DNA from: Candidatus Thorarchaeota archaeon
GTDB taxonomy: Archaea > Asgardarchaeota > Thorarchaeia > Thorarchaeales > Thorarchaeaceae
DNA length: 64,000 nt
Assembly: GCA_019057475.1 (NCBI GenBank)
Contig: DXJO01000010.1
Span: 320,001 to 384,000 of the forward strand
Reading direction: 5' to 3'
Both the position numbers and the translations under genes were made by a program. This document shows positions 45,463-64,000 of the stretch, in pieces; the stretch's first letter is position 1, and each line of letters starts with the position of its first letter. The notes under the pieces were generated by a model. It was not told where the DNA came from and did not search any database. It saw nothing but the letters and a program-made list of their open reading frames with translations.

Positions 45463-46221
45463 CTGCTCGAATCCTCCTTGCAGCCCGGGACACAAGTCCA
45501 AGATTGCCTTGTAAGATTACGAGTTCTAGAATATCTTAAGTGGTGGCTCCGGAGCGTCAGGGCATTTTGGGCCGTATACGTGGGCCTTGCTCGTTGAAGG
45601 CCCGTTTAGAATACCTAACCTCATATAAGACGGCCTCAAATCATCAACAGGGCGTTATGAGCAGAGATAGACTGGTGCGACCGTGATAGTCTGTACCCTA
45701 TTGAGAAAAAACCCTGCTTCTTCAAAGATTGTCCAATAAGGAGAAGGATTGGCGGCTAATGCTCGAGAGCTCCGACCACCGTATGGTGACATAGGGGGGA
45801 CCGAACCGTGCACTGAAACTCGGTCCTTTCTGAAGCAATGAATCTCTCTTTCTATCTGATCCAGCCGGCGCGTGTCAGTGTTCGCTCAGACACGGCGGCA
45901 AATTGCTAGAAGCCCGCGATATCCGTTGGTCTTCCCCGGCACAATGGCGCTCCTCTTGCAGAGTCCAACATGCACCCAAACTTGCCGATAGGTTCGCAAC
46001 AGGGTACAGATTATCACGGTTGAGGACTCCAATAATGCCACATAATGCCCACATCAGCACAGGGGGGCCTATGGGCTCCTTTGTTAACTTCTAAAGAAAG
46101 AATAGGGCCCCATCAGGCGGGCAGGGTGAGAATAGGTCTACTTGCACGTTCTCGGTAGTTTGAATATAGTTTGTTCTCACTGATTGCATCATACAGTGAG
46201 AGCACTGGGAGCGTATGTTCA

Positions 46222-46953
46222 GTGTCGAGGCTTGAACGAATACTAAAAGCTTCAATTGGTCAAGAGGGTCCGGAGACGGACTTGACCATGTTCTTCCAAA
46301 TGGAGTACAACACCCCTGACAGAAGCGTCATACGAGCGCGGATGGTCACCGACCAAAGCATCGCAGTGACTATCGGGCTGAGGAGCGCGATACTTGAACC
46401 CTTTAAGAGATTCCACATACCCTCAGATGGCGAATTCCTTGCGTGCGACATTCTAGGACTGATACCCGCTGTTGCAGTGATGCTGCGGAATCAGAGTCGA
46501 GGGGTGGCTGCGGGAACCATCGAGCGGGACTCGACAACGCGAATCATACTTGCATTCGAGTCTGAGATACCCATGAAAGACAATGGACTGAGAGATCTAG
46601 CATCCACCATCACCTGTACGATGCGGCAGTGGGGTGAGTGGACCAATGTGTTGCTCGGGACTCTTGATCGCGATCCTGTAGTGGGTGACTGGGAAATTGA
46701 CTGGCGTGAGTTTCTTGCTGGAGAGGCTGGATTCGTTACGATGCCGTGGTTCAGATCACTTGGCTTTCAGGACCGCAAGATCGCGCTCTCTAGGACAATA
46801 CTGGCGGCTGAGGCTTTGCTAATCTCAGTTCTCAATAGAAAGCAGCTCATAGACCCCGTCGCAATGCAGGTTCGGGACTGGATGAAATCGCTCAGCCCAC
46901 AGCCACACGTCACTGGATCTCATTACATCACTTTGGAAGAGGAGGTATTCTGA
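46222..46953 (+). CDS. Hypothetical protein, first gene of the 15-gene operon
   Basis: Long ORF, GTG start; stop overlaps the next ATG (TGATG). Confidence 0.7.
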   Translation: MSRLERILKASIGQEGPETDLTMFFQMEYNTPDRSVIRARMVTDQSIAVTIGLRSAILEPFKRFHIPSDGEFLACDILGLIPAVAVMLRNQSRGVAAGTIERDSTTRIILAFESEIPMKDNGLRDLASTITCTMRQWGEWTNVLLGTLDRDPVVGDWEIDWREFLAGEAGFVTMPWFRSLGFQDRKIALSRTILAAEALLISVLNRKQLIDPVAMQVRDWMKSLSPQPHVTGSHYITLEEEVF

Positions 46954-47420
46954 TGGTATTGGTTAATGACTTTCACAACTCCGCGCGAACAATCTACAGT
47001 CCGATAGTAGATACCGCTTGGCTCGCTGGAGCACTGGCTGGGACTGACCATGCAGGTTCACGGAATGGGGACTGGTACTGGGCTCGATTCTTGGATGAGG
47101 TGAAAGAGATGGCATCGCTAGCAGGGAGTGTTCGACCCACTGAACCCGGAGCAGAGCCGGATGACAATGGATCAGTCTACGATGTTATTGGAGGATACAT
47201 CAGCACTGCAGGACGATTCACACAGGAGGGCTTGAGGTTCAAGGTGCCTGTGAGCAGGCAGCAAAAGATGGTTGGCCTGTTCGGGGGAATCCTCCTGAGA
47301 GAGCATGAAGATATGATTGTGAGAGGTTATGACCTCTCAAAATTCACCAGGCTGGTTCCTATCAGGGGGCCACTGGCTGATAGGATTAGCAAGACGAAGA
47401 GTACGGAGGTAATGAAATGA
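46953..47420 (+). CDS. Hypothetical protein
   Basis: 155 aa, translationally coupled at both ends; GAGGAGG SD. Confidence 0.7.
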   Translation: MVLVNDFHNSARTIYSPIVDTAWLAGALAGTDHAGSRNGDWYWARFLDEVKEMASLAGSVRPTEPGAEPDDNGSVYDVIGGYISTAGRFTQEGLRFKVPVSRQQKMVGLFGGILLREHEDMIVRGYDLSKFTRLVPIRGPLADRISKTKSTEVMK

Positions 47421-48565
47421 CAGAGCTTACAGAGGTTCCAGGAGTCGGTTCCGTTGCAGCAAAGCAACTGAAGAACGCCTACATCACGACTGCGGAGCTG
47501 TTGGCCGTACAGAATGCCGACGAGCTGAATAATAAGGTAACACTTGGCGAGGGCACATGCACGAATATAATCCTGGCGGCCAGAGAGCTGCTTGGGATGT
47601 TCGCCTTCAAGTCTGCCCTTGAGGTCGAGAAGGAGAATGAGTCCAAGCCCCGGCTGAAGATAGGGCTTGAAAACGTTGACAGGCAACTGCTTGGAGGTCT
47701 TGAAATTGGCTCCCTTGTGGAGTTCTATGGCAAAGCCTCAGGCGGCAAGACACAAATGTGCGCCCACCTTGCGATAAGATGTCAGCTTCCCTTCGATGAG
47801 GGCGGCATTGAGGGTCGCGTAATATGGCTTGACAGTGAGTCATCATTCAAGACATCAATACTACGTGCGAACGCGAAGAGGTGGGGGCTTGACCCCGAAG
47901 TGGCTTTGGGCAACATTCAGACGATGCCTATAGTCACCTCGTACCATCTGGAACAACTCTTCGCCCGGATTCCACAGATGTGCATTGAACAGGGCATCAA
48001 GATGGTGGTCGTTGACTCACTGACCGGATTCTTTCGGGCAGAGCATGGGGGATTGGGTTCACTCGCTGTGCGACAACAGAGGATCAACAGGCTCCTGAAC
48101 CTCATGCGCCGAGTGGCAATGGCGACTGACGTGATGTTCGTCTACAGCAATCAAGCCATCTCAAGGATCGGTCCATTCCCCGTGCTGAACGCCCCGGTGG
48201 GAGGGCATATAGTATCGCACGCGTCTGATTATCGCTTCATGTCAACAGAGGGAAAGAGCGGAAAGCGCAAGCTGTACCTCAAGGACCATGCTGGGCTAGC
48301 TAACTTCAATGTTGAATTCAGCATAGGGTGGGGTGGATTCTACAACGACGAGAACGAGAGGAAAAAGATCGAACCCAAAATAGTGGAATACCTCAAGAGC
48401 AAGGACATATCCGCCGAGATACAGGAGAAGGACAAGAAGAAGGAGACAAAGAAGGTCAAGAAAGCCGAGAAGACCAAGAAGACAAAGAAATCAAAGAAGG
48501 CAGAAGCCAAGGCTGAAACCGAGGTAAAGCTGGAGGCGGAGGTAGTGCTGAAAGCAGAGGGTTAA
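47417..48565 (+). CDS. RadA/Rad51-like recombinase paralog with N-terminal HhH domain and Lys-rich tail
   Basis: LTEVPGVG (HhH), EFYGKASGGKTQ Walker A, QLP...GG, WLDSESSF, VVVDSLTGFFRAE, SNQ, PVGGHIVSHAS. Confidence 0.88.
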   Translation: MTELTEVPGVGSVAAKQLKNAYITTAELLAVQNADELNNKVTLGEGTCTNIILAARELLGMFAFKSALEVEKENESKPRLKIGLENVDRQLLGGLEIGSLVEFYGKASGGKTQMCAHLAIRCQLPFDEGGIEGRVIWLDSESSFKTSILRANAKRWGLDPEVALGNIQTMPIVTSYHLEQLFARIPQMCIEQGIKMVVVDSLTGFFRAEHGGLGSLAVRQQRINRLLNLMRRVAMATDVMFVYSNQAISRIGPFPVLNAPVGGHIVSHASDYRFMSTEGKSGKRKLYLKDHAGLANFNVEFSIGWGGFYNDENERKKIEPKIVEYLKSKDISAEIQEKDKKKETKKVKKAEKTKKTKKSKKAEAKAETEVKLEAEVVLKAEG

Positions 48566-48569
48566 GGCG

Positions 48570-49010
48570 ATGAGCGGCATGTTTAGAATATACAAATGCC
48601 CCTCCTGTGGCGCGATTGCCTACACGAGCGTGGAGAACGAGCAGGAAACCAGCATGTGTGGCTTGTGTAGAGGCCTAATCCTTGACGAGCCTGGCATACT
48701 CTACTCTGCAACAATCAACCAAGCTGAAGACCTTGTCGCAGAGATGGTCCTCCATAACATGTCGGAAAATAAAGTATCAACACCAACGAGCGGGCTCGGT
48801 GTGAGGCGCAGAGTGCTCAACATTATCGAGTGCCTTGTGGAGCTAAACAAGGGAAGGCCAGTGAACATTGACAGTGTGCTTAAGGAATGTGTGGGTGCCA
48901 AAATCAAGACCGAGAGGAGCCTCCATTTCCTAGATGTGCTTGAGGGCCAGGGACTGGTCATAGTTGATAGTGGTCATGTCAGTCTGGGCGAGGAGGGCAC
49001 AGACCCTTGA
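48570..49010 (+). CDS. Zinc-ribbon plus winged-helix protein
   Basis: CPSC...CGLC; C-terminal VLNIIECL...FLDVLEGQGLVI wHTH pattern. Confidence 0.65.
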   Translation: MSGMFRIYKCPSCGAIAYTSVENEQETSMCGLCRGLILDEPGILYSATINQAEDLVAEMVLHNMSENKVSTPTSGLGVRRRVLNIIECLVELNKGRPVNIDSVLKECVGAKIKTERSLHFLDVLEGQGLVIVDSGHVSLGEEGTDP

Positions 49011-49618
49011 CCCACCTGTATGTCCCCCCCTCATCAAACAATGTGACGCCCAGCTCCACAATCAATCTTGTCAATCTACTGATGAGAAACACTAGCAGAC
49101 GAGTGACGGTACTCCAAGTAGGAGGAAAAGTGGATCCTGACCCAGAGGTATATGTTGTCACCCGGGTGGACTGGCGGGATAAGGATCTCAACAGGCCGAT
49201 TTTGCCCCAATTGCCAAAGGTGCTTTCGATGCTGGAAACTCTTCGAGGCTCTAGGGGTGTGCCCAAGGAGATTTACCTTGACAGTACGGATGGTGTTGTA
49301 TGCTACATACCAACCGGCATCAGAATGTCTCAGCTACCAAGCAGCGCCAAAGCATCAGTTCAATTCATCATGTCTGTAGCAAACCAAACGGTTAGCCACT
49401 TCGATTCGACACGGTCTGAGGTCGAGGACTGGTTCTGGAGGACAGCTCGCAAGAGTGGCTTCAATCCCGAGATTGTCGAGAGGATTGCCCGAAGGGAGAA
49501 GCACTACGACTCGCCATCTCACGAGCACAGGTTTAGCAAGGTCATAGAGAACTACTTCTCTCTGAGGTTCAAAGTCTATCGAGCAGAATCATGCCTGAAG
49601 CTGGAGGGAGCGTATTGA
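49007..49618 (+). CDS. Hypothetical protein
   Basis: 203 aa, overlapping start and stop with both neighbours. Confidence 0.7.
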   Translation: MTHLYVPPSSNNVTPSSTINLVNLLMRNTSRRVTVLQVGGKVDPDPEVYVVTRVDWRDKDLNRPILPQLPKVLSMLETLRGSRGVPKEIYLDSTDGVVCYIPTGIRMSQLPSSAKASVQFIMSVANQTVSHFDSTRSEVEDWFWRTARKSGFNPEIVERIARREKHYDSPSHEHRFSKVIENYFSLRFKVYRAESCLKLEGAY

Positions 49619-51594
49619 TGGATGTGATGCGATGGTTCCCGTACACTCCAAGACCTCAGCAGGATCGGGCCGTGACGCATGCTGCCCATGTGTTCCAAGA
49701 TAAGACAGTGGGCCTGCTATCTGCAGATTGTGGAGTAGGAAAGACAATTGCTGTACTCTCAGCGTATCTTGCAGTACGGGCGAAAGATGCATCATCGCGG
49801 TTGATTGTCCTTGCCAGGACGCACTCGCAGTCAAAAGTCTTTGAGGATGAGCTTAGAGTTCTCAGGGAGGAACCGGCCGCAATATCAGATGGACTCCAAT
49901 TGACGGCCACGAGTATGGTTTCACGGGGGCATGTCTGTCCATTGACCGACAAGATGAACTCGGTGTCGTCAGTCGGGTTCCTACGTGCATGCGCACAGAT
50001 GATAGGCTCAGGAAAGTGCAGCATGTACTGGAGTTTCTACAAACGGGGCGCCGAGGGTCGGCCTCAAATCCGCGACGCTGCCCGGCAAACTGTTGATGCC
50101 CTGCTGAATGAGGGCGTGGTCACTCGGGATGAAGCGGAGGACATGGGGCTCTCGGAAGGAGTATGCCCGTATGAGGTCTTGAGGTGGTGTGCGCGCAATA
50201 GTAGAGTAGTAATTGGTCCATACGGCTACCTATTCAGGGAGAGAGTGCGGAATGCGCTCCTCTCGTCGCTTGGAATGAGCTTACATGAAGTCGACTTGAT
50301 TGTCGATGAAGCACACAACCTAGCATCCCATGTACTGGGCTCGGAAACCGCGTGTGTCAGTCTATCAGACCTTGAATGGCTGAGAAAGCATGACACCGAG
50401 ATAGAGCGTGAAACGCAGGTCGAATGGCTCCCTGAGGCGGTTGACTTTCTCTGGGAAACCGTGATGACCAACCTTGATAATATCCACTCCGAAAAGAACC
50501 TTGAGAAGTGGGATGTACTGCCAAGGTTTGTAGATGAGTCACAGATACAAAATCTACTGCTTGGGACGAAGATTGGTCTGGATGAGTCTGATGGCACAGT
50601 ACCCACGGAGACCCCGCTGGATCGATTAGTAGAGTTCCTCTACACGGGGCACCGAGCAGTTCTGAGTGAGGACTGGCATGTCACGCTAGAGGTCAGAAAG
50701 CCTTGGAGGCAAGAGTCGAATAGCCGTGATGCCGATCTGAAGATCAGACCACTGAACGCCGCTGGATTATCAGCTCCCGTACTCAGAGGTGCAAGGTCTG
50801 CGTTGCTTATGTCCGGTACTTTGAGGCCACTGCAGCACTATGCGGATCTGTTGGGAGTGTCAGGTGCCCTGATGGAGAGCCTGATGAGTCCGTACCCCCA
50901 TGGGAGTCGCCTTGTGCTCATTGACAAGGACATCACAACCAAGTATACAGCGCGGGGCGAACGGCTGTGGAGGACCATAGCAAGAAGAATCTCGACAACC
51001 TTGACAGCGATGCCCTCCGAGAAGAGCGCTCTAATTGCCTTCCCTAGCTACAGGATGATGGAGGATGTTCTGAGCTACGGCATAGATTGTGGATTCAGAG
51101 CAAGGCTAGAGGAAGCTCCAGGAGATCGCATTGAGATTGTTAAGGACGCACTTGAGGAAGGGCCCCATACGGTGTTTTGTGTATATGGAGGCAAGTTCTC
51201 TGAGGGCGTTGACCTCGTGGAGGGCGGGTCGAGCATGGTTGACCTGATTATCGGGGTTGGGATTCCATTCAGTCCCCCAACCAGCTACCAAAAAGCCCTT
51301 CAAGAATGGTACGAGAGAAGATTCGGGAAGGGTGCAGGCTACTACTACTCGTCAATTGTACCGTCTTTTCGCATGGTTGCACAGCTTGTAGGTAGACTTC
51401 GACGGAGTCCTGAGGATCGGGGGGTGGTCGTGCTTCTCGACAAAAGGTTCCAGCAACACATCAGAGTCTTTGGAGATGACATGGTTTCGGACCACTGGCC
51501 CTACTCAGGAGAGGACGAGATGAGGGGTGCCATTGATCTATTTGTAAGCCAGAGGAACAGAACGGAGGAGGCGAAGGGAGCGGTTGGCGTCTAG
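49618..51594 (+). CDS. XPD/DinG/Rad3-family Fe-S DNA helicase
   Basis: FPY.PRPQQ, DCGVGKT, ARTHSQ, four Fe-S Cys (VCPL, AC, KC, CPYE), VDEAHNL, MSGTL, FPSY, SEGVD, GIPF, QLVGRLRRS. Confidence 0.88.
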   Translation: MDVMRWFPYTPRPQQDRAVTHAAHVFQDKTVGLLSADCGVGKTIAVLSAYLAVRAKDASSRLIVLARTHSQSKVFEDELRVLREEPAAISDGLQLTATSMVSRGHVCPLTDKMNSVSSVGFLRACAQMIGSGKCSMYWSFYKRGAEGRPQIRDAARQTVDALLNEGVVTRDEAEDMGLSEGVCPYEVLRWCARNSRVVIGPYGYLFRERVRNALLSSLGMSLHEVDLIVDEAHNLASHVLGSETACVSLSDLEWLRKHDTEIERETQVEWLPEAVDFLWETVMTNLDNIHSEKNLEKWDVLPRFVDESQIQNLLLGTKIGLDESDGTVPTETPLDRLVEFLYTGHRAVLSEDWHVTLEVRKPWRQESNSRDADLKIRPLNAAGLSAPVLRGARSALLMSGTLRPLQHYADLLGVSGALMESLMSPYPHGSRLVLIDKDITTKYTARGERLWRTIARRISTTLTAMPSEKSALIAFPSYRMMEDVLSYGIDCGFRARLEEAPGDRIEIVKDALEEGPHTVFCVYGGKFSEGVDLVEGGSSMVDLIIGVGIPFSPPTSYQKALQEWYERRFGKGAGYYYSSIVPSFRMVAQLVGRLRRSPEDRGVVVLLDKRFQQHIRVFGDDMVSDHWPYSGEDEMRGAIDLFVSQRNRTEEAKGAVGV

Positions 51595-52183
51595 TCTTGC
51601 TAGTAGTCAGTTGAGGTATACCGTGCCCGGGGCTGTAGGTGCAGCTTGGTCACTCAGGATGGCCCTTGACCAGTCATATCGGGTTGTTCTTGAGTCCACA
51701 GTAGGTCTGTTCCTACTACTAGTCGCCCTCGTAATCTACCTGAAGGGACGCGAGAAGAACCTTCTGCTTTGGAATAACGATACTGGAATTCTCGCCACTG
51801 TAAAGCCTCTCACAGTAGAAGTGTGTGCAGCTCGACTCATGACCAGTGTCCCGCTTGGGATTGACCTAAGCCATTCTGCGGGCAGAGTCCTTGAAGCCAT
51901 GACAATCAGGTTCAATGAGGAAAAGAATGCGGAACTGCGGTTCTTTGTCTGTCGCCCTTTGGGGCGTGGGGTCACACGCGTAGGCATGATGGTGGTTCGT
52001 CAAGCACCGAACATGCGCAGGTTGGTTTCTGTTGTTGAGAAGCTGTCAGAGAAGGTGCTGGAGGATGTAATGGTCTTGGAGAGTGCTCTGCGCGCAGCCT
52101 ATGCCCATATGCCCATTGCCCGAGCGGAGCTAGAAGATATCACTCTCATAAACTCTGGAGGTGTGGATTTCATTGTCAACTGA
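51584..52183 (+). CDS. Membrane-anchored hypothetical protein
   Basis: 1-2 N-terminal hydrophobic helices, then an alpha/beta domain. Confidence 0.65.
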   Translation: MASSLASSQLRYTVPGAVGAAWSLRMALDQSYRVVLESTVGLFLLLVALVIYLKGREKNLLLWNNDTGILATVKPLTVEVCAARLMTSVPLGIDLSHSAGRVLEAMTIRFNEEKNAELRFFVCRPLGRGVTRVGMMVVRQAPNMRRLVSVVEKLSEKVLEDVMVLESALRAAYAHMPIARAELEDITLINSGGVDFIVN

Positions 52184-52460
52184 GGTGCAAGCCCAGATTA
52201 CAATCCCCACATCGCTACGCCCTCGGGCTGTTATGGACTCATTATCAGTCGGCCATGGTTACAGTTGGATTGTTCTTGTTTCCACGCCTCTGAGGATAGC
52301 TCATGGAAGCACATCAGATGGGGACCTGCCAGAGCTACTGATTGTAGGTAAGACCCTCCTGATGAGCGGGGGAAATGAAGTCTACATCAACCGCTTGAGG
52401 AGGATGCTTGAGGTGTTGTCGGGCACTTCCGTAAGAGTACGGAGGGATGGCGATGTCTAA
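52161..52460 (+). CDS. Small hypothetical protein (start uncertain, possibly GTG at 52185)
   Basis: Fills the operon gap and overlaps both neighbours. Confidence 0.5.
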   Translation: MWISLSTEVQAQITIPTSLRPRAVMDSLSVGHGYSWIVLVSTPLRIAHGSTSDGDLPELLIVGKTLLMSGGNEVYINRLRRMLEVLSGTSVRVRRDGDV

Positions 52461-54804: not shown

Positions 54805-54854
54805 TGTGATATGACGAGTCTGAAGATGAGAACGCAACCGCAGGAGGAACAACC

Positions 54855-57059
54855 GTGACATCCGCCATGGATACCCCTACCTACGTTAAGGGCGTTCTTG
54901 CAGGTGTGGGACTCACTCCTAGGGGTATCCAGAGCAAGGCAATAGAGGCTGGACTACTTGAGGGCAAGAGTATCATGGTATGTTCCCCTACAGGCTCGGG
55001 TAAGACGCTTGTCGGAGAGATGGCTCTCCTCAGAGGGGTCAGCGATATTCGCAAAGGCATCTACCTCGTTCCCCTGCGGGCACTGGCCACGCAGGTTGTT
55101 AGTGTACTCAGGGAGCGCTATGCTGACCAGGGAATCAGGATTGAGATCTCCACAGGGGACTTTCAGACCGATGGCTCAGACCTTGCTGAGGCTCAGATAC
55201 TTGTAACGACCTATGAAAGAGCAGACTCCCTCGTGAGGCACAAGGTTGACTGGCTTAACAAAATCGGAGTGCTGGTCATTGACGAAGTACAGAATATCGG
55301 GCACACATCAAGAGGCGCGCGTTTAGAGAGCGTCATCATGAGGATGCGGAAACTGACTGAGGACCTCCAGATAGTTGCCCTATCTGCTACTGTCGGAGAA
55401 CCATACATGCTGGCTGACTGGCTAGGGTGTCATCTGGTGGAGTCTGATGTCCGTCCCGTGCCGTTGACATGCAAGCTGGTTCCAACAACAGACCGTGAGA
55501 AGACCGTGCAGCAACTCGTGATGGCCACTGTGCAGGCTGACGGTCAGGTCATTGTATTCCACAGGACCAGACGCGAAACTGAGGCTGAGGCTAACCGTCT
55601 GAAGGATAGTGTGGGGCGACAACTGCGCACTAAGGAACGTACGACCCTTGATAGGGAGATGGACTCCTTGGAGAACTGGAATGTCACAATACCCACGGAA
55701 ATGCGGCCACTTCTACATGATGGTGTTGCATACCACCATGCTGGTCTTGGAGCCCGCACGAGAAGGCTTGTCGAAACCATGTTCGGTCGTGGGTTGCTGA
55801 GGGTGGTCTGTGCAACCACAACACTGGCAGCCGGGATGGATCTACCTGCACGAACAGTGGTACTCACATCCGCAAGGTCTCCCCAACATCACAGACGGTT
55901 CCTTCCCGCTAATCAGGTCCATCAGATGCTGGGCAGGGCGGGTAGACCGGGAAAGGATGTTAGAGGTTTCGGAGTGATTCTCACTGGTAGTCAAGGCGAG
56001 GCTAGGATGCTGACAAAGGAGTACTTTGCGAGTGAAGTCAACCCTGATACTGGAACGCCAGTACTGACGCCAAACTACGAGCCGGTGACTAGCGAGCTTG
56101 GGACATCGACCAATCTCACGGAACAACTGCTAGTAGCACTCGACTTTCTAGGAGCGGCATCCCTTGAAGAAGTCGAGCAGGAGTACCTTGGAGAGTCATA
56201 TCTGTTCCATTGTGGTAGATGGCTAACGAATACTCCCATGAGGATTGTGCAACTCGGTGAGGTGACTGCGCTAGCCGCAATTGAGCGCCACGCCAATCCG
56301 AATATGGTCCGTTCTGCAAGAGAGAACATACTGGGTACGGTCAAGATTAGAGAGCGGGGTGATACAGTCATCGGGGGTATTGTTTCTGTGCTGAGGAGTG
56401 GCCAACAGACATGCAGGTTTTCAGCAAGGATGACATCCGATGGTACGCTGGAGGGGCCGATGTGCTCATGCGGCAGCCCCATGACCAAGCATGGCTTTCT
56501 GTGCAACCATCTTGTTGCGCTTGGCATGGCAGCATCATCGGAGCTGACTCAACTGGCCAATTTCGTCATCCCCCTCGCGTTGAGCGAAACGAGTCCGAGT
56601 GGCCTTCTGATACGTCTTGGACTCTTGGAGGGTGGTGAGGGCGACAAGTTGAGACCCACAACCCTCGGCAGAACTGTGAACAGACTCTACCTCAAGATTT
56701 CAACCTTCAAAGAGATGATGGCTCTTATTCCGACCATTGAAAGTAACATAGTCCTAATGTCGGTGCTGAGACATCTGGTATCACTTGAAACAGGTCAGAA
56801 ACAGGGTGAAACCTTTGACACCCTCATCGCTTCTGTCGCATCAACCAATCTCTCGATGAGAGAAATGGCTCGATTGGCCAACCTTGCTGTTGGCGACGTA
56901 AAAGCACTACTTGACAAGTCGCGCTCGCTTCTATACTCGATAGTGGCAGTGGCAGACAGGGGCAACATGGAGCGGGTGTCAGAGATGGTACACGACCTTC
57001 TTTCGATCATAGATTCAAGATTACATCACATGGAGAGCGAAAACAATGACAGTGACTGA
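54855..57059 (+). CDS. Ski2/Hel308-like SF2 helicase with inserted SWIM zinc finger
   Basis: SPTGSGKT, VPLRALA, TTYE, IDEVQ, RGARLE, LSAT, HHAGL, TTTLAAGMDLPA, QMLGRAGRPG; CSC-x10-CNH SWIM motif. Confidence 0.88.
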   Translation: MTSAMDTPTYVKGVLAGVGLTPRGIQSKAIEAGLLEGKSIMVCSPTGSGKTLVGEMALLRGVSDIRKGIYLVPLRALATQVVSVLRERYADQGIRIEISTGDFQTDGSDLAEAQILVTTYERADSLVRHKVDWLNKIGVLVIDEVQNIGHTSRGARLESVIMRMRKLTEDLQIVALSATVGEPYMLADWLGCHLVESDVRPVPLTCKLVPTTDREKTVQQLVMATVQADGQVIVFHRTRRETEAEANRLKDSVGRQLRTKERTTLDREMDSLENWNVTIPTEMRPLLHDGVAYHHAGLGARTRRLVETMFGRGLLRVVCATTTLAAGMDLPARTVVLTSARSPQHHRRFLPANQVHQMLGRAGRPGKDVRGFGVILTGSQGEARMLTKEYFASEVNPDTGTPVLTPNYEPVTSELGTSTNLTEQLLVALDFLGAASLEEVEQEYLGESYLFHCGRWLTNTPMRIVQLGEVTALAAIERHANPNMVRSARENILGTVKIRERGDTVIGGIVSVLRSGQQTCRFSARMTSDGTLEGPMCSCGSPMTKHGFLCNHLVALGMAASSELTQLANFVIPLALSETSPSGLLIRLGLLEGGEGDKLRPTTLGRTVNRLYLKISTFKEMMALIPTIESNIVLMSVLRHLVSLETGQKQGETFDTLIASVASTNLSMREMARLANLAVGDVKALLDKSRSLLYSIVAVADRGNMERVSEMVHDLLSIIDSRLHHMESENNDSD

Positions 57060-58860
57060 AGACGAACGGCCGACACATGAGGCTGAGGGGTCCAAGGCCC
57101 CCAAAGGAGAATTGAAGGCCTACGATATAGTGAAAGTCCTAGAGGCTACTGACCATCTAACTCATGTTTCCCCAAATGGGCTGGTGTTGGGGGTAAGGAT
57201 ATCGGGGATTTCAGGGGCAAGAGGGGTTCACATCGAGATAGTTCATATCCTGGACCTCAGGGAAGCAGTATTTGGCAAGGGTGGTTTTGCCTTACAGGCA
57301 TCAGTTCTTGAGAGTGTTAACAGGGAACTCCCTAGCCTCTTGAAGGACGTTGGGCTTCGAGAACGGTTGGAGGAAACATCACCGTTGACACCATGGGGAC
57401 GAGTGCCCATGCATACTCTGCGTTCTGCGTCTGGTAAGCGAAAGTCCTTGGTCTATGAAACCAGACTTGTTTACGTTGTAACTCAGGATGTCCGATCCTC
57501 TGCGGACCTGAGCTGGTTGACTGCAAATGGAAGGGTGGTCAGTGTGCATGACTTTTCCCTTGCTAGAAAGAGCGACGCAAGAATCATTTTGCCCGACCTC
57601 GAGAAGAGCCTAATCATGGACAAGTGGGATGATTTCTCAAGGGCTGTCCGGAATGGATGGTACGGAGTGCTAGCGGCTGGGGCTAGTGTGCTCGGCGGTG
57701 TGACATCCCTCATGGTCCTGTTATCGAACTCAGGCAACCTCATCGCACCATTGGCCTTCATGGGCGTGTGTGGGGCGGTGGCAGGGCGGCTACTCAAGCA
57801 GTCCCACAAAGGGCTAAACGAATTCCGCGAAGTAATTGAGAGTGAGCAGGCAGGAATTGCATCTCTTGGCGATAGGAAACGTGTGGCGGACTCGATAAAG
57901 AGCAATGAGAATAAGATTAGGCTCATTGGCGACCTGAGCTTTGTGATATCCCCCTTAATGGCGTCTGCATCGAAGAACCTTGAGGATGGCGACGTCAACG
58001 GTGCCGTGGTGCTTGCAGAAAGGGTCTTGGATGAGCTCGTGAGGCTCTCGCCATCTGATGAGGACAAGAAGGGTATTATGACTGGGGACGTTGGGATTGA
58101 GAGATTCATTGGCGTCTTCCGCAATGTAGGCGCAGACCTGACAGAAGCCGAGGAGGTCTCTCTGGCCCTTGCCTACACGGCAATAACAGGACATATCACC
58201 ACGCCACTAGGGGTGGAAGAAGCCCTGACGCATATGGCTGTCTTGAATACAAGTCTATTCAACGCAGGTGTGTTGAGTCCAACAGTGAGGGGCTCCATTG
58301 ATGATATGTTCATCTCTAGAGCATTTCATGTAATCGTCGACGAGTTCGATGAAGATCTTGCCAAGCCAGAAGAGGAGATTGTGCAGACCGTTGACGAGCA
58401 TGGCTCTGGCATGGAGGAGTTGCTTGGGGACATTGCAAAGTCCGGTCCGGTTGCAGAGGAGCACGAGGAGGAGGCTAACCCCAAGGTGGACGAAACCCCT
58501 AAGGATGAACCGCCAGAAGGAGAGTCTGCTGAGATAGAGTCTACAGAGGATGAGGCTAAAGCCGATCGTGTTAAGGCTGTTGAGGTCGAAATCGCGCCCC
58601 CTAGCGAAGCGGAACCTGAAGGGGATCAGGATGATGCTGATGGCAAGGAAGAGCCAATTCCTGAGGCCCCAGATGATGTGGATGTCACAGAGGCAGAGCA
58701 ACCAAAGGCGCCTGTGGTGATGCAGTCTTCACTTGATGAGGTTGAGAAGGAGAAGGATCCCTCTACGGGACCTGAGGTCCTCAGCAGGAGGAATAAAAAA
58801 CAAGCCAAACAGAACGCCATGATTCGAAAGAAGCGGGAGAGTGGAAAGGTCGCAGCTTAA
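57046..58860 (+). CDS. Membrane protein with long acidic disordered tail
   Basis: Two central TMs; helical domain; Glu/Pro-rich C-terminal ~150 aa ending in a basic patch. Confidence 0.7.
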   Translation: MTVTEDERPTHEAEGSKAPKGELKAYDIVKVLEATDHLTHVSPNGLVLGVRISGISGARGVHIEIVHILDLREAVFGKGGFALQASVLESVNRELPSLLKDVGLRERLEETSPLTPWGRVPMHTLRSASGKRKSLVYETRLVYVVTQDVRSSADLSWLTANGRVVSVHDFSLARKSDARIILPDLEKSLIMDKWDDFSRAVRNGWYGVLAAGASVLGGVTSLMVLLSNSGNLIAPLAFMGVCGAVAGRLLKQSHKGLNEFREVIESEQAGIASLGDRKRVADSIKSNENKIRLIGDLSFVISPLMASASKNLEDGDVNGAVVLAERVLDELVRLSPSDEDKKGIMTGDVGIERFIGVFRNVGADLTEAEEVSLALAYTAITGHITTPLGVEEALTHMAVLNTSLFNAGVLSPTVRGSIDDMFISRAFHVIVDEFDEDLAKPEEEIVQTVDEHGSGMEELLGDIAKSGPVAEEHEEEANPKVDETPKDEPPEGESAEIESTEDEAKADRVKAVEVEIAPPSEAEPEGDQDDADGKEEPIPEAPDDVDVTEAEQPKAPVVMQSSLDEVEKEKDPSTGPEVLSRRNKKQAKQNAMIRKKRESGKVAA

Positions 58861-59539
58861 GGATGATTCCATGTTCGGGCTTGACGGTCTGATACATCTC
58901 TCGGGAGTGGCTGGTTCTGGCAAGACCCTCTTTGCAGTCGCCTTGGCTTCCAAGGCTACGCGGAATGGAAAAGTGCTATGGATCAACACCGATGCGAAGA
59001 CCGCATTTGTCAATCATCTGAAGGTCAACATTGATTCGGTAGGTGGCGACAGGACAGCAAGCTCTATTCTCCCAATCGTGGGTCACAAGCGTGTTCGAGA
59101 AGCCATTCTCGATCTTCCAAACAGTCTTGACAATAACACGGTGCTTTTGGTAGTCGACCCCGTAACGCGAGCTTTGGATATGTCCCACAGAGAGGATGTG
59201 ATGTGGGGCAGAGAAATGTTCGAGGAAGTGATGCCCACCCTTGCAGGTCTGGTGATTGCCAGAGGAATGAATGTGGTAATAGTGTCTGAGAGCAGGAGCT
59301 TTGACCGCGAGCCTGCTGCTGTGTTTCATAGGTCGATAGAGAGGTGGGCTGATCACGACTTGGTACTGTCTAGGCGGTATGGCGCATTAACCACGGATGT
59401 GGCACGGTATCAGACTGAAGGTGCCGTTCCTTTTGTGCAATTCACATTAACAGAGGAGGGGGTCGTTAAGGTGACAGAATTCAATGATGGAAACAACTCG
59501 GAGGTGTCGGATTGTTCGGGAAGTCGATGCTCCGCGTAG
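58841..59539 (+). CDS. RadB-like RecA-family ATPase
   Basis: HLSGVAGSGKT, VLWINTD, LLVVDPV, VIVSE; no N-terminal HhH domain. Confidence 0.75.
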   Translation: MERSQLKDDSMFGLDGLIHLSGVAGSGKTLFAVALASKATRNGKVLWINTDAKTAFVNHLKVNIDSVGGDRTASSILPIVGHKRVREAILDLPNSLDNNTVLLVVDPVTRALDMSHREDVMWGREMFEEVMPTLAGLVIARGMNVVIVSESRSFDREPAAVFHRSIERWADHDLVLSRRYGALTTDVARYQTEGAVPFVQFTLTEEGVVKVTEFNDGNNSEVSDCSGSRCSA

Positions 59540-60483
59540 TAGGACTGGTAGTTGCTGGTGCCGTGGCACTTGCCATGGGTGCTAGTCTGCTGAGTTCAGT
59601 TGTGGGAGTTGTAACTGCTCTAAGAGCTGGCGATATAGTTCCGTTCATTGTTGTGACAGTGACCACAGTCATCTTCCTTAGACTATCGGCAAACTCTCCT
59701 GAGAAACGAACACCTATCCACGTATTGCTGGGAGTGCTCGGATGGGCATCTGCAATCTACTTATTCGTGGTTGTTCTGATGTGGGTGCTTCCATTCGGAG
59801 TGGCGCCGGCAATCCTTGCAGCAGGTATCACAGCTGTGCTGTGCGGGTTCGTGAGAGATCCAACCGGACTCAATGAGAAGATGAGTCGAATAGCCGATGT
59901 TTCATCATCGCTAGGTCTGAGTCCTAATGGGCTGAGCATCACCTCGCAATTAGACGGCACTCAGTCGATATGGACGAGAATGGAGCGTTTCCGGTACAAG
60001 GTCATAATCATTCCCCACAAGCATTTCGACACAGTGATTGACCTCCTCAAGGATCGCCCCAAACTTCCAGTATCCTTCACACGACTGGAGGATACAGATG
60101 TTCTGATAGTGAGAGATGAGGAGTGGGCCGACAATGTTCTTGCAGTGTTGAGAGAGAGTGGTGTCCATGACGCATATATTGCCTCCCCTCTTCTTGAAAA
60201 AGCGATACTTGCATTCCCCCTGTTAGAGCATGAACACGGGGTGAAGGTCATTGACTATCAATTCACCTATGACGCCGATACTGTACAAAAGCTACTGGCG
60301 ATTCAACCACTGCGAATGACCGTGTATCCCGATCCTAAGGGGCTCGTTGTGATGGTTTTCAGTGACAGTGTGCTCGGGCTCAACCTTGAACCCCTTCCGA
60401 TGGGAAGAGAAGCATCAGCAGTTATGGCCCGTGTTATATCACACCTACACAGAGGTGAACCTACTATTGGCAGTTCCACTTGA
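59512..60483 (+). CDS. Polytopic membrane protein (3-4 TMs plus soluble domain)
   Basis: Hydrophobic N-terminal ~115 aa; GGAGGTG SD. Confidence 0.7.
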   Translation: MFGKSMLRVVGLVVAGAVALAMGASLLSSVVGVVTALRAGDIVPFIVVTVTTVIFLRLSANSPEKRTPIHVLLGVLGWASAIYLFVVVLMWVLPFGVAPAILAAGITAVLCGFVRDPTGLNEKMSRIADVSSSLGLSPNGLSITSQLDGTQSIWTRMERFRYKVIIIPHKHFDTVIDLLKDRPKLPVSFTRLEDTDVLIVRDEEWADNVLAVLRESGVHDAYIASPLLEKAILAFPLLEHEHGVKVIDYQFTYDADTVQKLLAIQPLRMTVYPDPKGLVVMVFSDSVLGLNLEPLPMGREASAVMARVISHLHRGEPTIGSST

Positions 60484-61180
60484 CTCAATTGACATAGCAA
60501 CAGAGCCTGTGACAAGGCTGGTGCCACGACAACTTGACAGGGTGCTAGGACAACTACTGGTCCCCGGTCAGGTCAGTCTTATTCATGGCCCTGACAGGTC
60601 TCCGCTAACGACCATTGCGCATGCTGTTGCGGTGGGTGCTGTCAAGTCCGGTGGTCGATCCGCATACTTGGATTCCGGTACCAACTACAGCTCCGCCCTC
60701 GCAAGGGTGCTGTGCAACAGAAGTGGCTCTCCGGAGGATTTACTGAAGGAAATTGCAGTGGGGCCGGTGATGAGTCTTGCAGATCTTGAGGGCATGGTCC
60801 TTCAGGTGTCCTCCATGGAAGGTATCACCGTGGTGGTAGTGGATAGTCTGACGGGAGTGCTGAATCTAACTGGGGCTCCGAGGAGCAAGGGCAGACAGAG
60901 GAAACTCTTTGCCACCCTTGAGGTTCTGAGGGGTGTCGTGAATGACAACAATATCCATCTGTTCATCACGGACCACTCGGCAAGGAAATGGAACAATGGA
61001 ACACCAAGCCCGATTGGAGGCAACGTCATCGCGCACGGCGTTGACTCTCTCATCAGAGTGGACCGCCTTGCTGTTAAGGAGGGTTTGTTCAGGCTTGAGG
61101 TGGAAAGAAGTCCGGTCAATCCGGCTGACAAGGGAGTGGTCGTACGGATCGGACTGAATGGAATCAGGTCGATCAAATAG
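60467..61180 (+). CDS. RecA/RadA-family paralog with inactivated Walker A
   Basis: LDRVLG...PGQVSLIHGPDRSPLT, YLDSG, VVVVDSL, FITDH, PIGGNVIAHGVD; TTG start after GAGGTG. Confidence 0.75.
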   Translation: MAVPLDSIDIATEPVTRLVPRQLDRVLGQLLVPGQVSLIHGPDRSPLTTIAHAVAVGAVKSGGRSAYLDSGTNYSSALARVLCNRSGSPEDLLKEIAVGPVMSLADLEGMVLQVSSMEGITVVVVDSLTGVLNLTGAPRSKGRQRKLFATLEVLRGVVNDNNIHLFITDHSARKWNNGTPSPIGGNVIAHGVDSLIRVDRLAVKEGLFRLEVERSPVNPADKGVVVRIGLNGIRSIK

Positions 61181-61192
61181 GGGGAACTGGGA

Positions 61193-62179
61193 GTGGGCGT
61201 AAAGAAATGGAGCTTCGTGCCTTGGGAGTGGGCAAGCATTGACGAGCTCTCTCCAAGGACAATCGCCATAGACGCTCCGAACTACCTGATGCGCAGACTA
61301 TCAACTATTCGAAGGAATGGCAAGTTCAATCGAGTCCCTCTAAGTCATATTCATGTCGCTCTCGGAACAATCCGCGCAGCACTTCGTATTCATGTCCTTC
61401 CCGTATTGGTGTTCGATGGTCCTCCTGAAACCCTGAAACGTGCTCCCAATCCCGAGCTCATTATCGCAGCTCACGACCTATACCGCACCTTCTGTTCTGA
61501 GAGAGACCCCTACAGCCACAAGCTGGTCAATGACCTGCAGGACAGCCCTGCGCTGAGGATGTACTTTGCAGCGTTTCACGTCAAGGACCTTTGCAAAAGT
61601 TTGGGTATCCCATGTATCAACTCGCCCTCTGAAGCTGAGATGGCGGCTGCAGTCTTGTGTCGTGATGGGTTGGTTGGCACGGTTGTGTCGAATGATGCTG
61701 ATGCACTATTATTCGGAAGTCCACATGTCACAAAACAACTCCATCTTACAAAGAGAGCGATTTTCAGAGCCACGCGAAGTGAGCTTGAAGCCAAGATGGG
61801 CCTAGACCTAGAGCATCTGAGGGACCTTGCTATTGTTTGTGGGTGTGACTTCCACAAGCAGGGCGTGAAGGGAGTGGGGCCTCGAAAGGGAGTAGTTCTC
61901 CTTCAGAGGCACGGAGGACTTGTAGGGCTTCTAAAGGCGCGAGGCTATACCGCATTTCAGAGAGAAGAGTACATCCTCGCACGTGAGGTATTCGACGAGC
62001 CTACTCACATGTCCAGCAATGGGTTTGACATCACTCTCAGGCCTCCAATGGTTCCAATGGCAGTCAGGCTACTCAGCGCTGTCATGGGAACGGAGAAGGC
62101 AGAAGAAACCGTGGCGAAGATAGTACGACTGTGGAAAGGGTTCGGCGAACAACAGACAACACTGGAGCAATTTGCATGA
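61193..62179 (+). CDS. FEN1/XPG-family 5' nuclease (divergent paralog)
   Basis: MGV, IAIDAPN, VFDG.PP, PSEAE, SNDADALLFG, GCDF..GVKGVGP; C-terminal QTTLEQF PIP-like motif. Confidence 0.85.
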   Translation: MGVKKWSFVPWEWASIDELSPRTIAIDAPNYLMRRLSTIRRNGKFNRVPLSHIHVALGTIRAALRIHVLPVLVFDGPPETLKRAPNPELIIAAHDLYRTFCSERDPYSHKLVNDLQDSPALRMYFAAFHVKDLCKSLGIPCINSPSEAEMAAAVLCRDGLVGTVVSNDADALLFGSPHVTKQLHLTKRAIFRATRSELEAKMGLDLEHLRDLAIVCGCDFHKQGVKGVGPRKGVVLLQRHGGLVGLLKARGYTAFQREEYILAREVFDEPTHMSSNGFDITLRPPMVPMAVRLLSAVMGTEKAEETVAKIVRLWKGFGEQQTTLEQFA

Positions 62180-62216
62180 CGAGAAGCGATGGTCATATCC
62201 CGAGAATAGGAGGGCG

Positions 62217-63171: not shown

Positions 63172-64000
63172 TTACCCCGAATCAAGGAATCGCGATTCAC
63201 GTGTCCATGGATCTCGCCATCCCTTTTCACTGTGCAGCCTGTGAAGGAGGGTCATGCGATAGGTCTTCTGCTTCTCAATCAACCCTGTGACATAATTCAC
63301 ACCTATGTCATTCATGTACTCTCTCGCTGGGCCCAGAAAGATGGTGCTTTGAAGGTCTGGAACACGAACAACAGCAAATAGACCCCTCCCGCCCTCCATC
63401 CTCAGAGCGCGGACATAGGGGGCGCCTTTCAGCAGATAGGACCAGACGGCCCCCACCTTCTTTGGACTGGAATCATAGATTATGACGTATACACCCTCAG
63501 GAATTGCACTGTACTCCAACGATGGGTGGTATAGGACTGTCAGAAGGGATCTAGCAAGGAGCGTCTCCACTCTTTCCTTAGCGCTCTGATTGGGAATTCC
63601 CATAGCACGGACTAGCCTCAGTCTGTCCTGAAAACAGCCGTGGTGTGCACATAGTATCCCAAGCAGGTCCCTGTCTCTCTGTGAAACTGGCCACGGTGCA
63701 CCATCAACTTGGGGCGATTCGCAGTATAGCCATCCCGGAATGTCTTTGGGTATCATATCTTCCGCTTGCCACGGTCTTACGCTCCACTTGGGCTCACCGG
63801 TTTCATTACTGAAGAGGTCCGTTCTCATGGAGATTACCTCGGAGTCAGCAGTGACTTGCACTGAGCCAGGAATCAAGTCCTCCTCATGCGGCCCGACCGA
63901 GCTGACTGGTTCAGCATAGACGACAATCTCAAGGAATTCACTACTACTGAAGATCGTGTCTTTGCATACGTACTTTTCAGAAGCTCCCCCGGTCGGGACC
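63172..64000 (-). CDS. Hypothetical protein, C-terminal part (HTH plus ferredoxin-like end); starts outside the window
   Basis: Frame is open without a stop from 63172 to the window edge (manual translation). Confidence 0.6.
   Translation of the reverse strand, partial: VPTGGASEKYVCKDTIFSSSEFLEIVVYAEPVSSVGPHEEDLIPGSVQVTADSEVISMRTDLFSNETGEPKWSVRPWQAEDMIPKDIPGWLYCESPQVDGAPWPVSQRDRDLLGILCAHHGCFQDRLRLVRAMGIPNQSAKERVETLLARSLLTVLYHPSLEYSAIPEGVYVIIYDSSPKKVGAVWSYLLKGAPYVRALRMEGGRGLFAVVRVPDLQSTIFLGPAREYMNDIGVNYVTGLIEKQKTYRMTLLHRLHSEKGWRDPWTRESRFLDSG

Follow-up and report, generated by a model that had tools for sequence, protein, structure and literature searches.

A conserved Asgard operon joining a second set of recombination enzymes to membrane proteins: a candidate locus for DNA exchange and recombination

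Fifteen successive genes on the + strand of a Thorarchaeota chromosome (positions 46222-62179 of the window, that is, of the whole 64,000-nt stretch analysed) join a duplicate set of homologous-recombination enzymes to membrane proteins, among them a pseudo-ATPase of VirB4/HerA fold. The composition of this operon, the conserved linkage of its genes, their paralogy, the purifying selection on them, and the folds and motif states of the products are direct observations. As to function, we give a probability of roughly 40% to the reading that this chromosomal, vertically inherited locus encodes an Asgard machine for contact-dependent DNA exchange and homologous recombination, built on the remnant of a T4SS/HerA-clan ATPase. 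A literature search found no paper describing the operon, in agreement with the first-pass annotation, which had not recognised it as a described system.

Architecture, conservation and inheritance of the locus

The genes overlap or nearly abut, as had been noted from the open reading frames, and with the chosen start codons the gaps at the 14 junctions measure -1, -4, +4, -4, -1, -11, -23, -8, +50, -14, -20, -28, -17 and +12 bp, the largest thus being the ∼50 bp given before. The three RecA-family proteins counted at that stage are g03 (Rad51, E 3e-48) and the RadB-like g12 and g14, the four ORFs without a family are g01, g02, g05 and g08, and TM prediction places the three further membrane proteins beside g09 at g07, g11 and g13 (Table 1). 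The Fe-S XPD, SWIM Hel308, FEN1/XPG and Zn-ribbon assignments were likewise borne out by family and motif matches. Pfam, PDB-profile and PHROG searches matched g01, g02, g05, g07, g08 and g13 to no family. A histidine kinase gene at 62172-62975 was rejected as part of the operon, since, apart from this genome, only its closest relative has it. No conserved promoter or upstream motif rose above shuffled sequences, so that the suggested damage inducibility is not supported, and a scan of the locus for bacterial promoters and terminators was uninformative.

Table 1. Genes of the operon and of its downstream flank (L119 coordinates lie past the window end)
Gene	Position	Strand	Description
g01	46222..46953	+	soluble, 243 aa, no family; first gene of the operon
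g02	46953..47420	+	155 aa, no family
g03	47417..48565	+	second full-length RadA recombinase (predicted)
g04	48570..49010	+	Zn-ribbon (4 invariant Cys) and probable winged helix
g05	49007..49618	+	soluble, 203 aa, well conserved, no family; dN/dS 0.05
g06	49618..51594	+	Fe-S XPD/Rad3-family helicase
g07	51584..52183	+	membrane-anchored; cytoplasmic domain related to g09 N-terminal domain
g08	52161..52460	+	99 aa, no TM segment, no family
g09	52453..54804	+	TM hairpin, alpha/beta N-domain, VirB4/HerA-fold pseudo-ATPase, C-terminal winged helix
g10	54855..57059	+	Hel308-type SF2 helicase with inserted SWIM zinc finger
g11	57046..58860	+	alpha/beta N-domain, TM hairpin, HEPN-like helical domain, acidic disordered tail
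g12	58841..59539	+	RadB-like RecA-fold protein; Walker A GSGKT intact
g13	59512..60483	+	3-4 N-terminal TM helices and cytoplasmic domain, no family
g14	60467..61180	+	RadA/Rad51-paralog core without HhH domain or Walker A lysine
g15	61193..62179	+	FEN1/XPG-family nuclease
R1 (3' part)	63172..64000	-	582 aa, extends past window, convergent to operon
TM5	L119:3156-3755	+	199-aa 5-TM protein
Ig-repeat surface protein	L119:3892-11718	+	2608 aa

Gene order was identical in all 23 Thorarchaeota (family-level) loci examined, with variable outer flanks, and dN/dS lay between 0.05 and 0.30 in every gene tested (0.06-0.12 for g01 among relatives), which indicates purifying selection; because of this fixed order and constraint, the operon is not a chance arrangement. 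The operon is carried by about 70-75% of 76 family genomes, which are incomplete, and the set was not found in some fairly complete ones (e.g. G008, 92%). g01 was seen in family-level loci only; at the position of g02, two genomes have an extremely divergent RadA-like gene, and g02 is absent in two. Beyond the family, the neighbourhood check proposed earlier returned rearranged forms: Freyar-, Baldr- and Loki-type Asgard genomes hold such versions, repeatedly with an adjoining SWIM-Hel308, and in other Asgard families g09 is again accompanied by SWIM-Hel308, RadA/RadB paralogs, FEN1-like or XPD-like genes and large surface proteins. Among 20 loci, mostly of Loki type, 13 have SWIM-Hel308 next to g09, and g04 is also present in Freyar-type and f12 clusters.

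Asgard families differ in which DNA genes they have and in how these are arranged, and the most widespread unit consists of M50-like, g07-like and g09 genes accompanied by large surface proteins, in some cases in the absence of any DNA gene; at L108, L112, L116, L177 and L178, g09 homologs stand with membrane and surface genes only. Both points favour a regulon with two functions, in which an envelope module (TM5/M50-like, g07, g09 and the giant protein) would export or anchor the adhesin and a spare recombination kit would merely be co-expressed with it, for example during stress or aggregation. We regard this as quite unlikely, since membrane genes alternate with DNA genes and are translationally coupled to them (g06-g07 and g09-g10-g11-g12-g13-g14), SWIM-Hel308 remains next to g09 through several rearrangements, and a winged helix is present in g09 and an HhH domain in its Loki-type neighbour.

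The locus continues past the operon. R1, conserved directly after g15 in 16 loci, had no Pfam match and is probably a multi-HTH regulator, to judge from its sequence. The TM5 and 2608-aa surface-protein genes belong to the locus: of 19 loci, 17 have them adjoining the operon, and in the sister-family genome G037 they lie inside it. No thioester motif was found in the giant surface protein. The repeated genes R2 and X230 lie directly downstream of its gene.

The locus is chromosomal and vertically inherited. There is no tRNA gene in the window or the following 18 kb, no relaxase or integrase among the locus ORFs and no PHROG match for ten proteins; GC is ∼52% versus ∼50%, the operon RadA tree places genomes of the same genus together, and neither the operon nor the housekeeping RadA subtree puts G037 within the family. 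This agrees with the earlier view that the locus is not a typical mobile element. An integrated element or provirus with its own recombination genes, which would fit the failure to find the set in genomes such as G008 and the presence of R2 and X230, is thereby largely refuted and highly improbable.

The second set of recombination enzymes

RadA, XPD, Hel308 and FEN1 all have housekeeping copies encoded separately in the same genome, that of XPD on contig C54 (operon paralog g06) and that of FEN1 on contig C21 (operon paralog g15). The repair genes of the operon are thus extra copies, which supports the dedicated module that had been proposed. g03 keeps the HhH domain, polymerisation motif, Walker A GKT, Walker B, catalytic Glu and DNA-binding loop regions (motif table), and by these motifs is predicted to be an active, filament-forming RadA recombinase; it falls short of the RadA equivalog cut-off, as a paralog would be expected to. 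In a quick tree with long-branch warnings and no outgroup, operon RadA forms an old clade of its own, distinct from housekeeping RadA. The motifs of g06 are intact (GxGKT, DEAH and four Cys), and the four Fe-S cysteines of XPD are found in 23 of 25 aligned rows. The helicase motifs of g10 are also intact, and its SWIM finger (CxC..CxH) is missing from the two other Ski2/Hel308-like helicases of the genome. g15 retains its acidic catalytic residues and has a conserved, PIP-box-like C-terminus, and g14, from its motifs, is probably a mediator pseudo-ATPase.

The SWIM finger of g10 and the RadA/Rad51 paralogs g12 and g14 are encoded together, as in a Shu-type complex, a likeness of composition only; a complex prediction with the SWIM-containing C-terminal half of g10, g12 and g14 scored 0.00, which neither supports nor opposes association. 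SWIM-domain Shu proteins are part of the eukaryotic RAD51-paralog recombination network. This network, in which HELQ interacts with BCDX2 (PMC13623763), resembles the Asgard locus in bringing together a full recombinase, truncated paralogs, a SWIM finger and a Hel308/HELQ-type helicase, but the eukaryotic side has no VirB4-like membrane scaffold, and the likeness is an analogy only. Published trees have RAD51 and DMC1 branching outside every Asgard RadA paralog sampled (PMC12722695).

The g09 pseudo-ATPase and the other membrane proteins

The fold search on the g09 model returned VirB4 as best match (4ag5, Z 28.5, rmsd 2.6, 321 aligned) and HerA at Z 24.9. Only with TrwK/VirB4 chains does the alignment reach into the N-terminal alpha/beta domain, which aligns to TrwK from about residue 190-220 onward. 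The P-loop reads GG....R instead of holding the Walker A lysine, and GK[S/T] is absent from this position in all aligned family members, from Thorarchaeota to Loki-type; g09 had no CedB or CedD NCBIfam match. It is therefore predicted that g09 cannot bind ATP canonically, and the family-wide loss of the lysine points to a scaffold rather than a motor. Hence, of the TM-anchored HerA/VirB4-like protein in the first-pass annotation, the fold and TM hairpin stand, whereas a CedB-type motor does not, the protein being a pseudo-ATPase in all sampled Asgard lineages. A 1250-aa paralog of g09, predicted to be an active ATPase, lies on contig C54, unlinked to the operon, and also occurs in genomes without a detected operon (G008). 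Loki-type proteins of 1270 aa carry two TM-plus-domain units before the ATPase fold, equivalent to a fusion of g07 and g09. Iterative searches, together with intermediates of Loki type, link the g07 and g09 domains (E 1.7e-3 to 3.5e-9), while a direct Thor-only profile comparison gave no link; the HH value of 99.5% comes from profiles with members in common and is not independent.

In g11 the TM hairpin sits within a long helical hairpin. Its C-domain aligns to AbiV (Z 8.8), AF_0298 (Z 8.2) and Csm6 (Z 7.4), scores that are middling for a helical bundle, and of the HEPN catalytic R-x4-6-H the orthologs displayed keep the His with no Arg at the expected place. A PD-(D/E)xK nuclease fold considered for the N-domain was unconfirmed, whole-model searches being dominated by helical parts, and the ESM Atlas had no usable match for g11 or g13. 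Only weak homology (HH probability <=69%) connects g11 with Freyar-type c18 and Loki-type c4/c6, and by sequence these appear as positional and architectural counterparts only; profile comparisons of g13 with c19 and with the g07 domain were not significant. HEPN folds, HerA-fold proteins, and Ski2-like and DinG-like helicases all occur in defence systems, and the locus might accordingly sense foreign DNA at the membrane and destroy it or abort infection. This is very unlikely, because PADLOC gave generic helicase matches only and no match to the eight other proteins, the HEPN-like domain of g11 has no catalytic Arg, and the frequency of the operon among incomplete family genomes, its fixed order and vertical descent are unlike those of defence islands.

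The membrane proteins of the locus have 1-5 predicted TM helices each and none has six or more, compared with 6-7 in CedA (PMC9905601). TrbL/VirB6 and ComEC (PF03772) profiles had no match in the 96% complete genome and DprA (PF02481) stayed below cut-off; CedA homology needs profile-profile or structure comparison. No pilin-like gene is present in the operon, whose sole small protein, g08, has no TM segment where VirB2/CedA1-like proteins have two. With neither a channel nor a pilin identified, the earlier suggestion of DNA import across the membrane is not supported. The channel searches suit instead a membrane-tethered factory for recombination and repair of the cell's own chromosomes (recombination between copies, fork restart or segregation at the envelope), with no DNA crossing the membrane. 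Moreover, all recognisable domains of g07, g09, g11 and g13 lie next to short TM hairpins and are most readily interpreted as cytoplasmic, g09 pairs a DNA-binding-type winged helix with a predicted loss of motor activity, and Loki-type clusters contain an additional HhH-bearing membrane protein. Such a factory is nevertheless unlikely, since it leaves the conserved extracellular Ig protein and TM5, both embedded in the G037 operon, without explanation, and the g09 fold is closer to secretion-type VirB4.

Known systems and a proposed mechanism

Ced (Sulfolobales, Desulfurococcales) and Ted (Thermoproteales) are DNA-import systems (PMC9905601, PMC11823120), domesticated from T4SS, with loci that co-locate with recombination genes (PMC9905601). 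The Asgard locus is likewise chromosomal and non-mobile, combines a membrane-anchored VirB4/HerA-clan protein with small membrane proteins, and is linked to homologous-recombination genes (Rad50/HerA in Ted). In contrast, CedB and CedD are described as ATPases that power import and g09 is predicted to be catalytically dead; neither the CedA/VirB6 channel nor the CedA1/VirB2 pilin was identified in the Asgard locus, which has a full duplicate kit (RadA, two RadB-like, XPD, SWIM-Hel308, FEN1) and a giant Ig-repeat surface protein. With VirB4/TrwK, g09 shares the ATPase-domain fold and the N-terminal domain, but it has its own TM anchor and an added winged helix and has lost Walker A, and the locus holds no other T4SS core gene. 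The HerA-NurA-Mre11-Rad50 resection operon also places a HerA-clan fold in a DNA-repair setting, whereas g09 has neither Walker A nor a NurA partner; a separate operon of that type, with HerA Walker A intact, lies on contig C26 (partner genes read from sequence). Bacterial natural competence employs ComEC, ComFA, ComFC, DprA and RecA, with the SF2 protein ComFA providing force. The logic proposed here would be similar (a membrane apparatus with an SF2 helicase-like motor, zinc-finger partner, recombinase loaders and branch-migration helpers), but no operon protein matches a Com family.

In the exchange machine that we favour, cell contact would be mediated by the 2608-aa Ig-repeat protein, and g07, g09, g11, g13 and TM5 would assemble into a membrane platform oriented towards the cytoplasm. 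In it g09, with its dead VirB4 fold, may act as scaffold or gate, its winged helix holding DNA, and force could come from the intact XPD-type and Hel308-type helicases, as with ComFA, or from the active g09 paralog on C54. Loading of g03 onto single-stranded DNA would fall to the SWIM finger and the RadB-like pair g12/g14. Hel308 and XPD would process the D-loop, and g15 would trim the flaps, probably on PCNA. This reading is supported by the order kept in 23 loci, the linkage of the surface gene and TM5, the VirB4-like fold of g09, the duplicate recombination genes, the separate clade of intact RadA, the recurrent pairing of g09 with SWIM-Hel308, and the Ced/Ted precedent. It is weakened by the failure to identify a channel, the lack of a pilin-like gene in the operon, the few TM helices, the dead VirB4-like subunit, the g09 homologs without DNA enzymes and the unlinked active paralog. 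A bolder version, which we hold to be doubtful, is that the Asgard ancestor had a parasexual apparatus, with a giant adhesin and an inactivated-VirB4 scaffold coupled to a second recombinase, mediators, a SWIM-helicase, an Fe-S helicase and a flap nuclease. This would have kept cell-to-cell chromosomal exchange apart from housekeeping repair, as a membrane-tethered parallel, not an ortholog, of the RAD51/DMC1 division.

The means by which Asgard archaea exchange and recombine DNA are relevant to how eukaryotic sex arose. A second RadA clade has been noted in some Asgards, with no genomic context given in the accessible part of the report (PMC12722695). The present locus provides a concrete, conserved envelope context for a second RadA, together with a list of proteins for experiments. 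Since Loki-type forms are found in a group of which some members are in culture, expression, localisation and structure are directly testable. Under the rival readings too, the locus defines several uncharacterised protein families and a family of membrane-anchored pseudo-ATPases found across Asgard archaea. In the archaea closest to eukaryotes, the locus may represent an undescribed machine for intercellular DNA exchange and recombination.

Composition and conservation of the operon

The operon consists of 15 + strand ORFs (g01-g15) spanning 46222-62179, with its 14 junction gaps lying between -28 and +50 bp. Matches to Pfam and NCBIfam identified g03 as RadA-like, g04 as a Zn-ribbon protein, g06 as an XPD-type helicase, g10 as a Hel308-type helicase, g12 and g14 as RadB-like and g15 as a FEN1-like nuclease, and transmembrane (TM) segments were predicted in g07, g09, g11 and g13; the description of ORFs, identities and membrane proteins in the first-pass annotation was accurate. 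The nearest named locus belongs to a Thorarchaeota MAG, with 92% identity across g09. Within the family, a single-sequence search detected g09 in 24 of 36 genomes and a profile search in 52 of 76; g11 was detected in 53/76 and the C-terminal half of g10 in 57/76. The first-pass annotation had proposed examining neighbourhood conservation across relatives: the genes present keep an identical order in 23/23 family-level loci extracted, and rearranged versions occur in other Asgards. Deviations among the 23 comprise the lack of g01-g03 in G030 and of g02 in G007, one locus where g05 was not called, some split ORFs, and contig ends. In two genomes g02 is replaced by a divergent RadA-like gene; the gene at this position in genus g6 retains Walker A and has lost the catalytic Glu. 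Gaps in the assemblies seem to account for many apparent absences of the operon, as the giant gene that neighbours it is there, frequently where a contig ends. Real loss may also occur, since neither the operon genes tested nor the giant gene were found in G008 (92% complete). Purifying selection acts on every gene tested, dead enzymes included (dN/dS 0.05-0.30). The operon is real and conserved. We found no published description of it, in agreement with the earlier remark that it was not recognised as a described system; the operon is undescribed within the literature searched, subscription journals lay mostly outside that search, and such absence is not proof.

When the repair genes were compared with same-genome copies, as had also been proposed, separate RadA (contig C39), XPD (C54), Hel308-like (C54, C19) and FEN1 (C21) genes were found elsewhere at 26-36% identity, and the recombination genes of the operon are extra copies, not the housekeeping ones. 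In a quick maximum-likelihood RadA tree, unrooted and with long-branch warnings, operon RadAs and eight cluster RadAs from other Asgard families split from all 30 housekeeping RadAs (SH-aLRT 98), with the exception of one long-branched cluster copy (G045) on the housekeeping side. Moreover, most congeneric genomes cluster, and the sister-family genome G037 falls outside the family in the operon and housekeeping subtrees alike. This split, the congeneric grouping and the placement of G037 indicate an old duplication and vertical inheritance of the operon RadA. A mobile element is a highly improbable reading of the locus, which is not an ICE. The accessible part of a published Asgard RadA phylogeny (PMC12722695) argues against equating any sampled Asgard paralog with DMC1 and makes no mention of such a cluster, nor does the accessible part of a Ski2/Hel308 survey. 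As for motifs, g03 retains the HhH domain, polymerisation motif, Walker A/B, catalytic Glu and loop regions; g06 retains four Fe-S cysteines and the helicase motifs; the motor motifs of g10 are intact, and it has a SWIM finger that is not in the genome's other two Ski2/Hel308-like helicases; in g15 the acidic residues for catalysis remain, as does a conserved PIP-like tail; Walker A is present in g12 and lost in g14. In L122 and L131 (G030, G016) the distance from the giant surface gene to the housekeeping radA beyond it is ~8-10 kb.

Flanking genes and extent of the locus

The locus is larger than g01-g15, and the membrane protein TM5 and the 2608-aa surface gene belong to it. TM5 and then the giant gene follow the operon in 17/19 loci, the other two genomes having the giant gene on a separate contig, and in G037 both are found between g11 and g12, within the operon. 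The giant protein has a signal-like segment at its N-terminus and an anchor at its C-terminus, and contains an alpha/alpha toroid and Ig/macroglobulin-like repeats. TM5 is weakly related (E 6e-4, 0.014) to HExxH M50-like membrane proteins adjoining g09 in other Asgards, and has lost the HExxH motif. Four further copies of the gene next to R2 (X230), complete or partial and 75-78% identical, occur in the genome, which suggests a repeated or mobile unit. On the other side, the GH3-family gene is possibly linked to the operon in function; 8 further loci of Thorarchaeota also have it directly upstream, and in two genomes from other families, G037 and G041, it is found close to the cluster. No ThiF/E1-like gene was seen at the equivalent position in the relatives' loci examined. 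The histidine kinase, which this genome shares with its closest relative, G005, alone (dN/dS 0.23), is a recent insertion under purifying selection.

Features flanking or related to the operon (L, extracted loci; G000, source genome; C, its contigs)
Feature	Location	Strand	Remarks
ThiF/E1-like gene	window 43008-43919	-	coupled to GH3 gene; ThiF E 1.5e-30
GH3-family acyl-ligase gene	window 43921-45501	-	directly upstream of operon
Stand-alone histidine kinase	window 62172-62975	+	overlaps g15 stop
R1, 582 aa	3' part at window 63172-64000, rest past window end	convergent
TM5, 199 aa, 5 TM	L119:3156-3755	+	degenerate M50-like
Giant Ig-repeat surface protein, 2608 aa	L119:3892-11718	+	together with TM5 G000:C42:385155-393717, just past window end
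R2, 663 aa	L119:11744-14457 (G000:C42:393740-396456)	-	follows giant gene in 7 loci
Fourth RadA-like gene at g02 position, genus g6	L039:2905-3900; L042:15960-17069		extremely divergent, branch length 5.6
Small GTPase + roadblock gene pair	L081:12905-14084; also L083, L091, L092
PD-(D/E)xK-like (NERD, weak) nuclease domain + helical domain, f16 genome	L100:6801-7709	-	next gene after g09
Active membrane HerA/VirB4-clan ATPase, 1250 aa	L180 = G000:C54:41310-45062	+	g09 paralog
Second active VirB4-like ATPase, 852 aa	G000:C21:65188-70455	-	coupled to 902-aa charged protein

The membrane proteins and their relatives in other Asgards

The predicted structure of g09 (pLDDT 76) has TrwK/VirB4 as top Foldseek match (E 3e-12); structural alignment gave Z 28.5 for VirB4 4ag5 (rmsd 2.6, 321 residues) and a lower Z of 24.9 for HerA, and TrwK chains alone extend the alignment into the g09 N-domain. 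The C-terminus is modelled as a winged helix. The P-loop reads GG....R, and its lysine is missing in every locus aligned and in every longer family representative among the best 150 matches of a 1.8-billion-protein search; to judge from these sequences g09 is dead as an ATPase, and the role of a Ced-type motor, suggested for it by the parallel drawn in the first-pass annotation, is not supported. Three components define Ced and Ted: an ATPase of VirB4 type, a channel resembling VirB6 with 6-7 TM helices, and a pilin like VirB2; Rad50/HerA genes are found alongside Ted loci (PMC9905601; PMC11823120). Because g09 appears to lack the active ATPase of those systems, the locus is not counted as a Ced/Ted member; by analogy it may work like one. 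It is not of the bacterial-type competence kind either. The model of g11 is confident (pLDDT 88) and comprises an N-terminal alpha/beta domain, a long hairpin that includes two TM helices, and a bundle of helices that resembles HEPN domains with middling Z (8.8 vs AbiV) and is without the HEPN catalytic Arg; a defence system is an improbable reading of the locus.

Rearranged versions of the locus are spread across the Asgards. The g09 profile matches 140/301 phylum genomes, with no match in four small (1.3-1.4 Mb) family f3 genomes, and named members from Baldrarchaeia, Freyarchaeota, Lokiarchaeota/Promethearchaeota and Helarchaeales are annotated as hypothetical or winged-helix. Freyar-type loci carry on one side a RadA paralog, a large surface protein and a split g09, and on the other a g11-like gene, SWIM-Hel308, g04, g12, a 4-TM gene and a FEN1-like gene; families f7, f8, f12, f15, f28 and f10 carry other subsets. 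Iterative profiles link the g07 cytoplasmic domain to the g09 N-domain, and Loki-type proteins of ~1270 aa, in which two TM+domain units precede the ATPase fold, appear to be g07+g09 fusions (moderate E-values in both cases). In 13/20 mostly Loki-type loci SWIM-Hel308 is divergent from a gene run that encodes three membrane proteins, one of them containing HhH, and this fusion. Some second g09 copies have no neighbours other than giant ORFs and membrane genes (L108, L112, L116). That the locus is an envelope module, merely co-regulated with its repair genes, is unlikely. In metagenomic locus L177 an active HerA-clan ATPase directly follows g09. In genomes of the Freyar type and of f7 and f6, the GTPase-roadblock (MglA/MglB-like) pair comes immediately after the FEN1-like gene or sits beside the cluster, and the nuclease-like domain in L100 has apparent catalytic residues.

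A candidate motor and the proposed mechanism

The 1250-aa ATPase on C54, unlinked to the operon, is similar to g09 in layout, has an intact Walker A, is homologous to g09 across ATPase and winged helix (HH 95.8%, E 7e-9) and is present in 70/76 family genomes; its top NCBIfam match is CedD, far below cut-off. It is a candidate motor in trans and a putative partner of g09. Its gene and an Ig-like surface gene diverge, and a gene for a P-loop ATPase lies close by (C54:33000-41100). The 852-aa ATPase on C21 is unrelated to the locus.

TM prediction of the locus proteins, TM5 included, and genome profile searches identified no channel, and no pilin was identified in the locus; together these are the main weakness of an exchange function. 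A membrane-tethered recombination factory that transports nothing is a doubtful alternative. The best-supported reading, to which we give a probability of about 40%, is a domesticated machine for DNA exchange on cell contact, coupled to a recombination kit of its own. The composition, linkage, folds and motif states of the locus are observed, and it is from these that we infer the function of the operon, with cell contact, complex formation, DNA transport and its direction. In this exchange machine the giant protein would act as adhesin, the membrane proteins and the dead VirB4-fold g09 would form a platform, and helicases or an active ATPase encoded in trans would serve as motor; g12/g14 and the SWIM finger would load g03, and g15 would be the flap nuclease.
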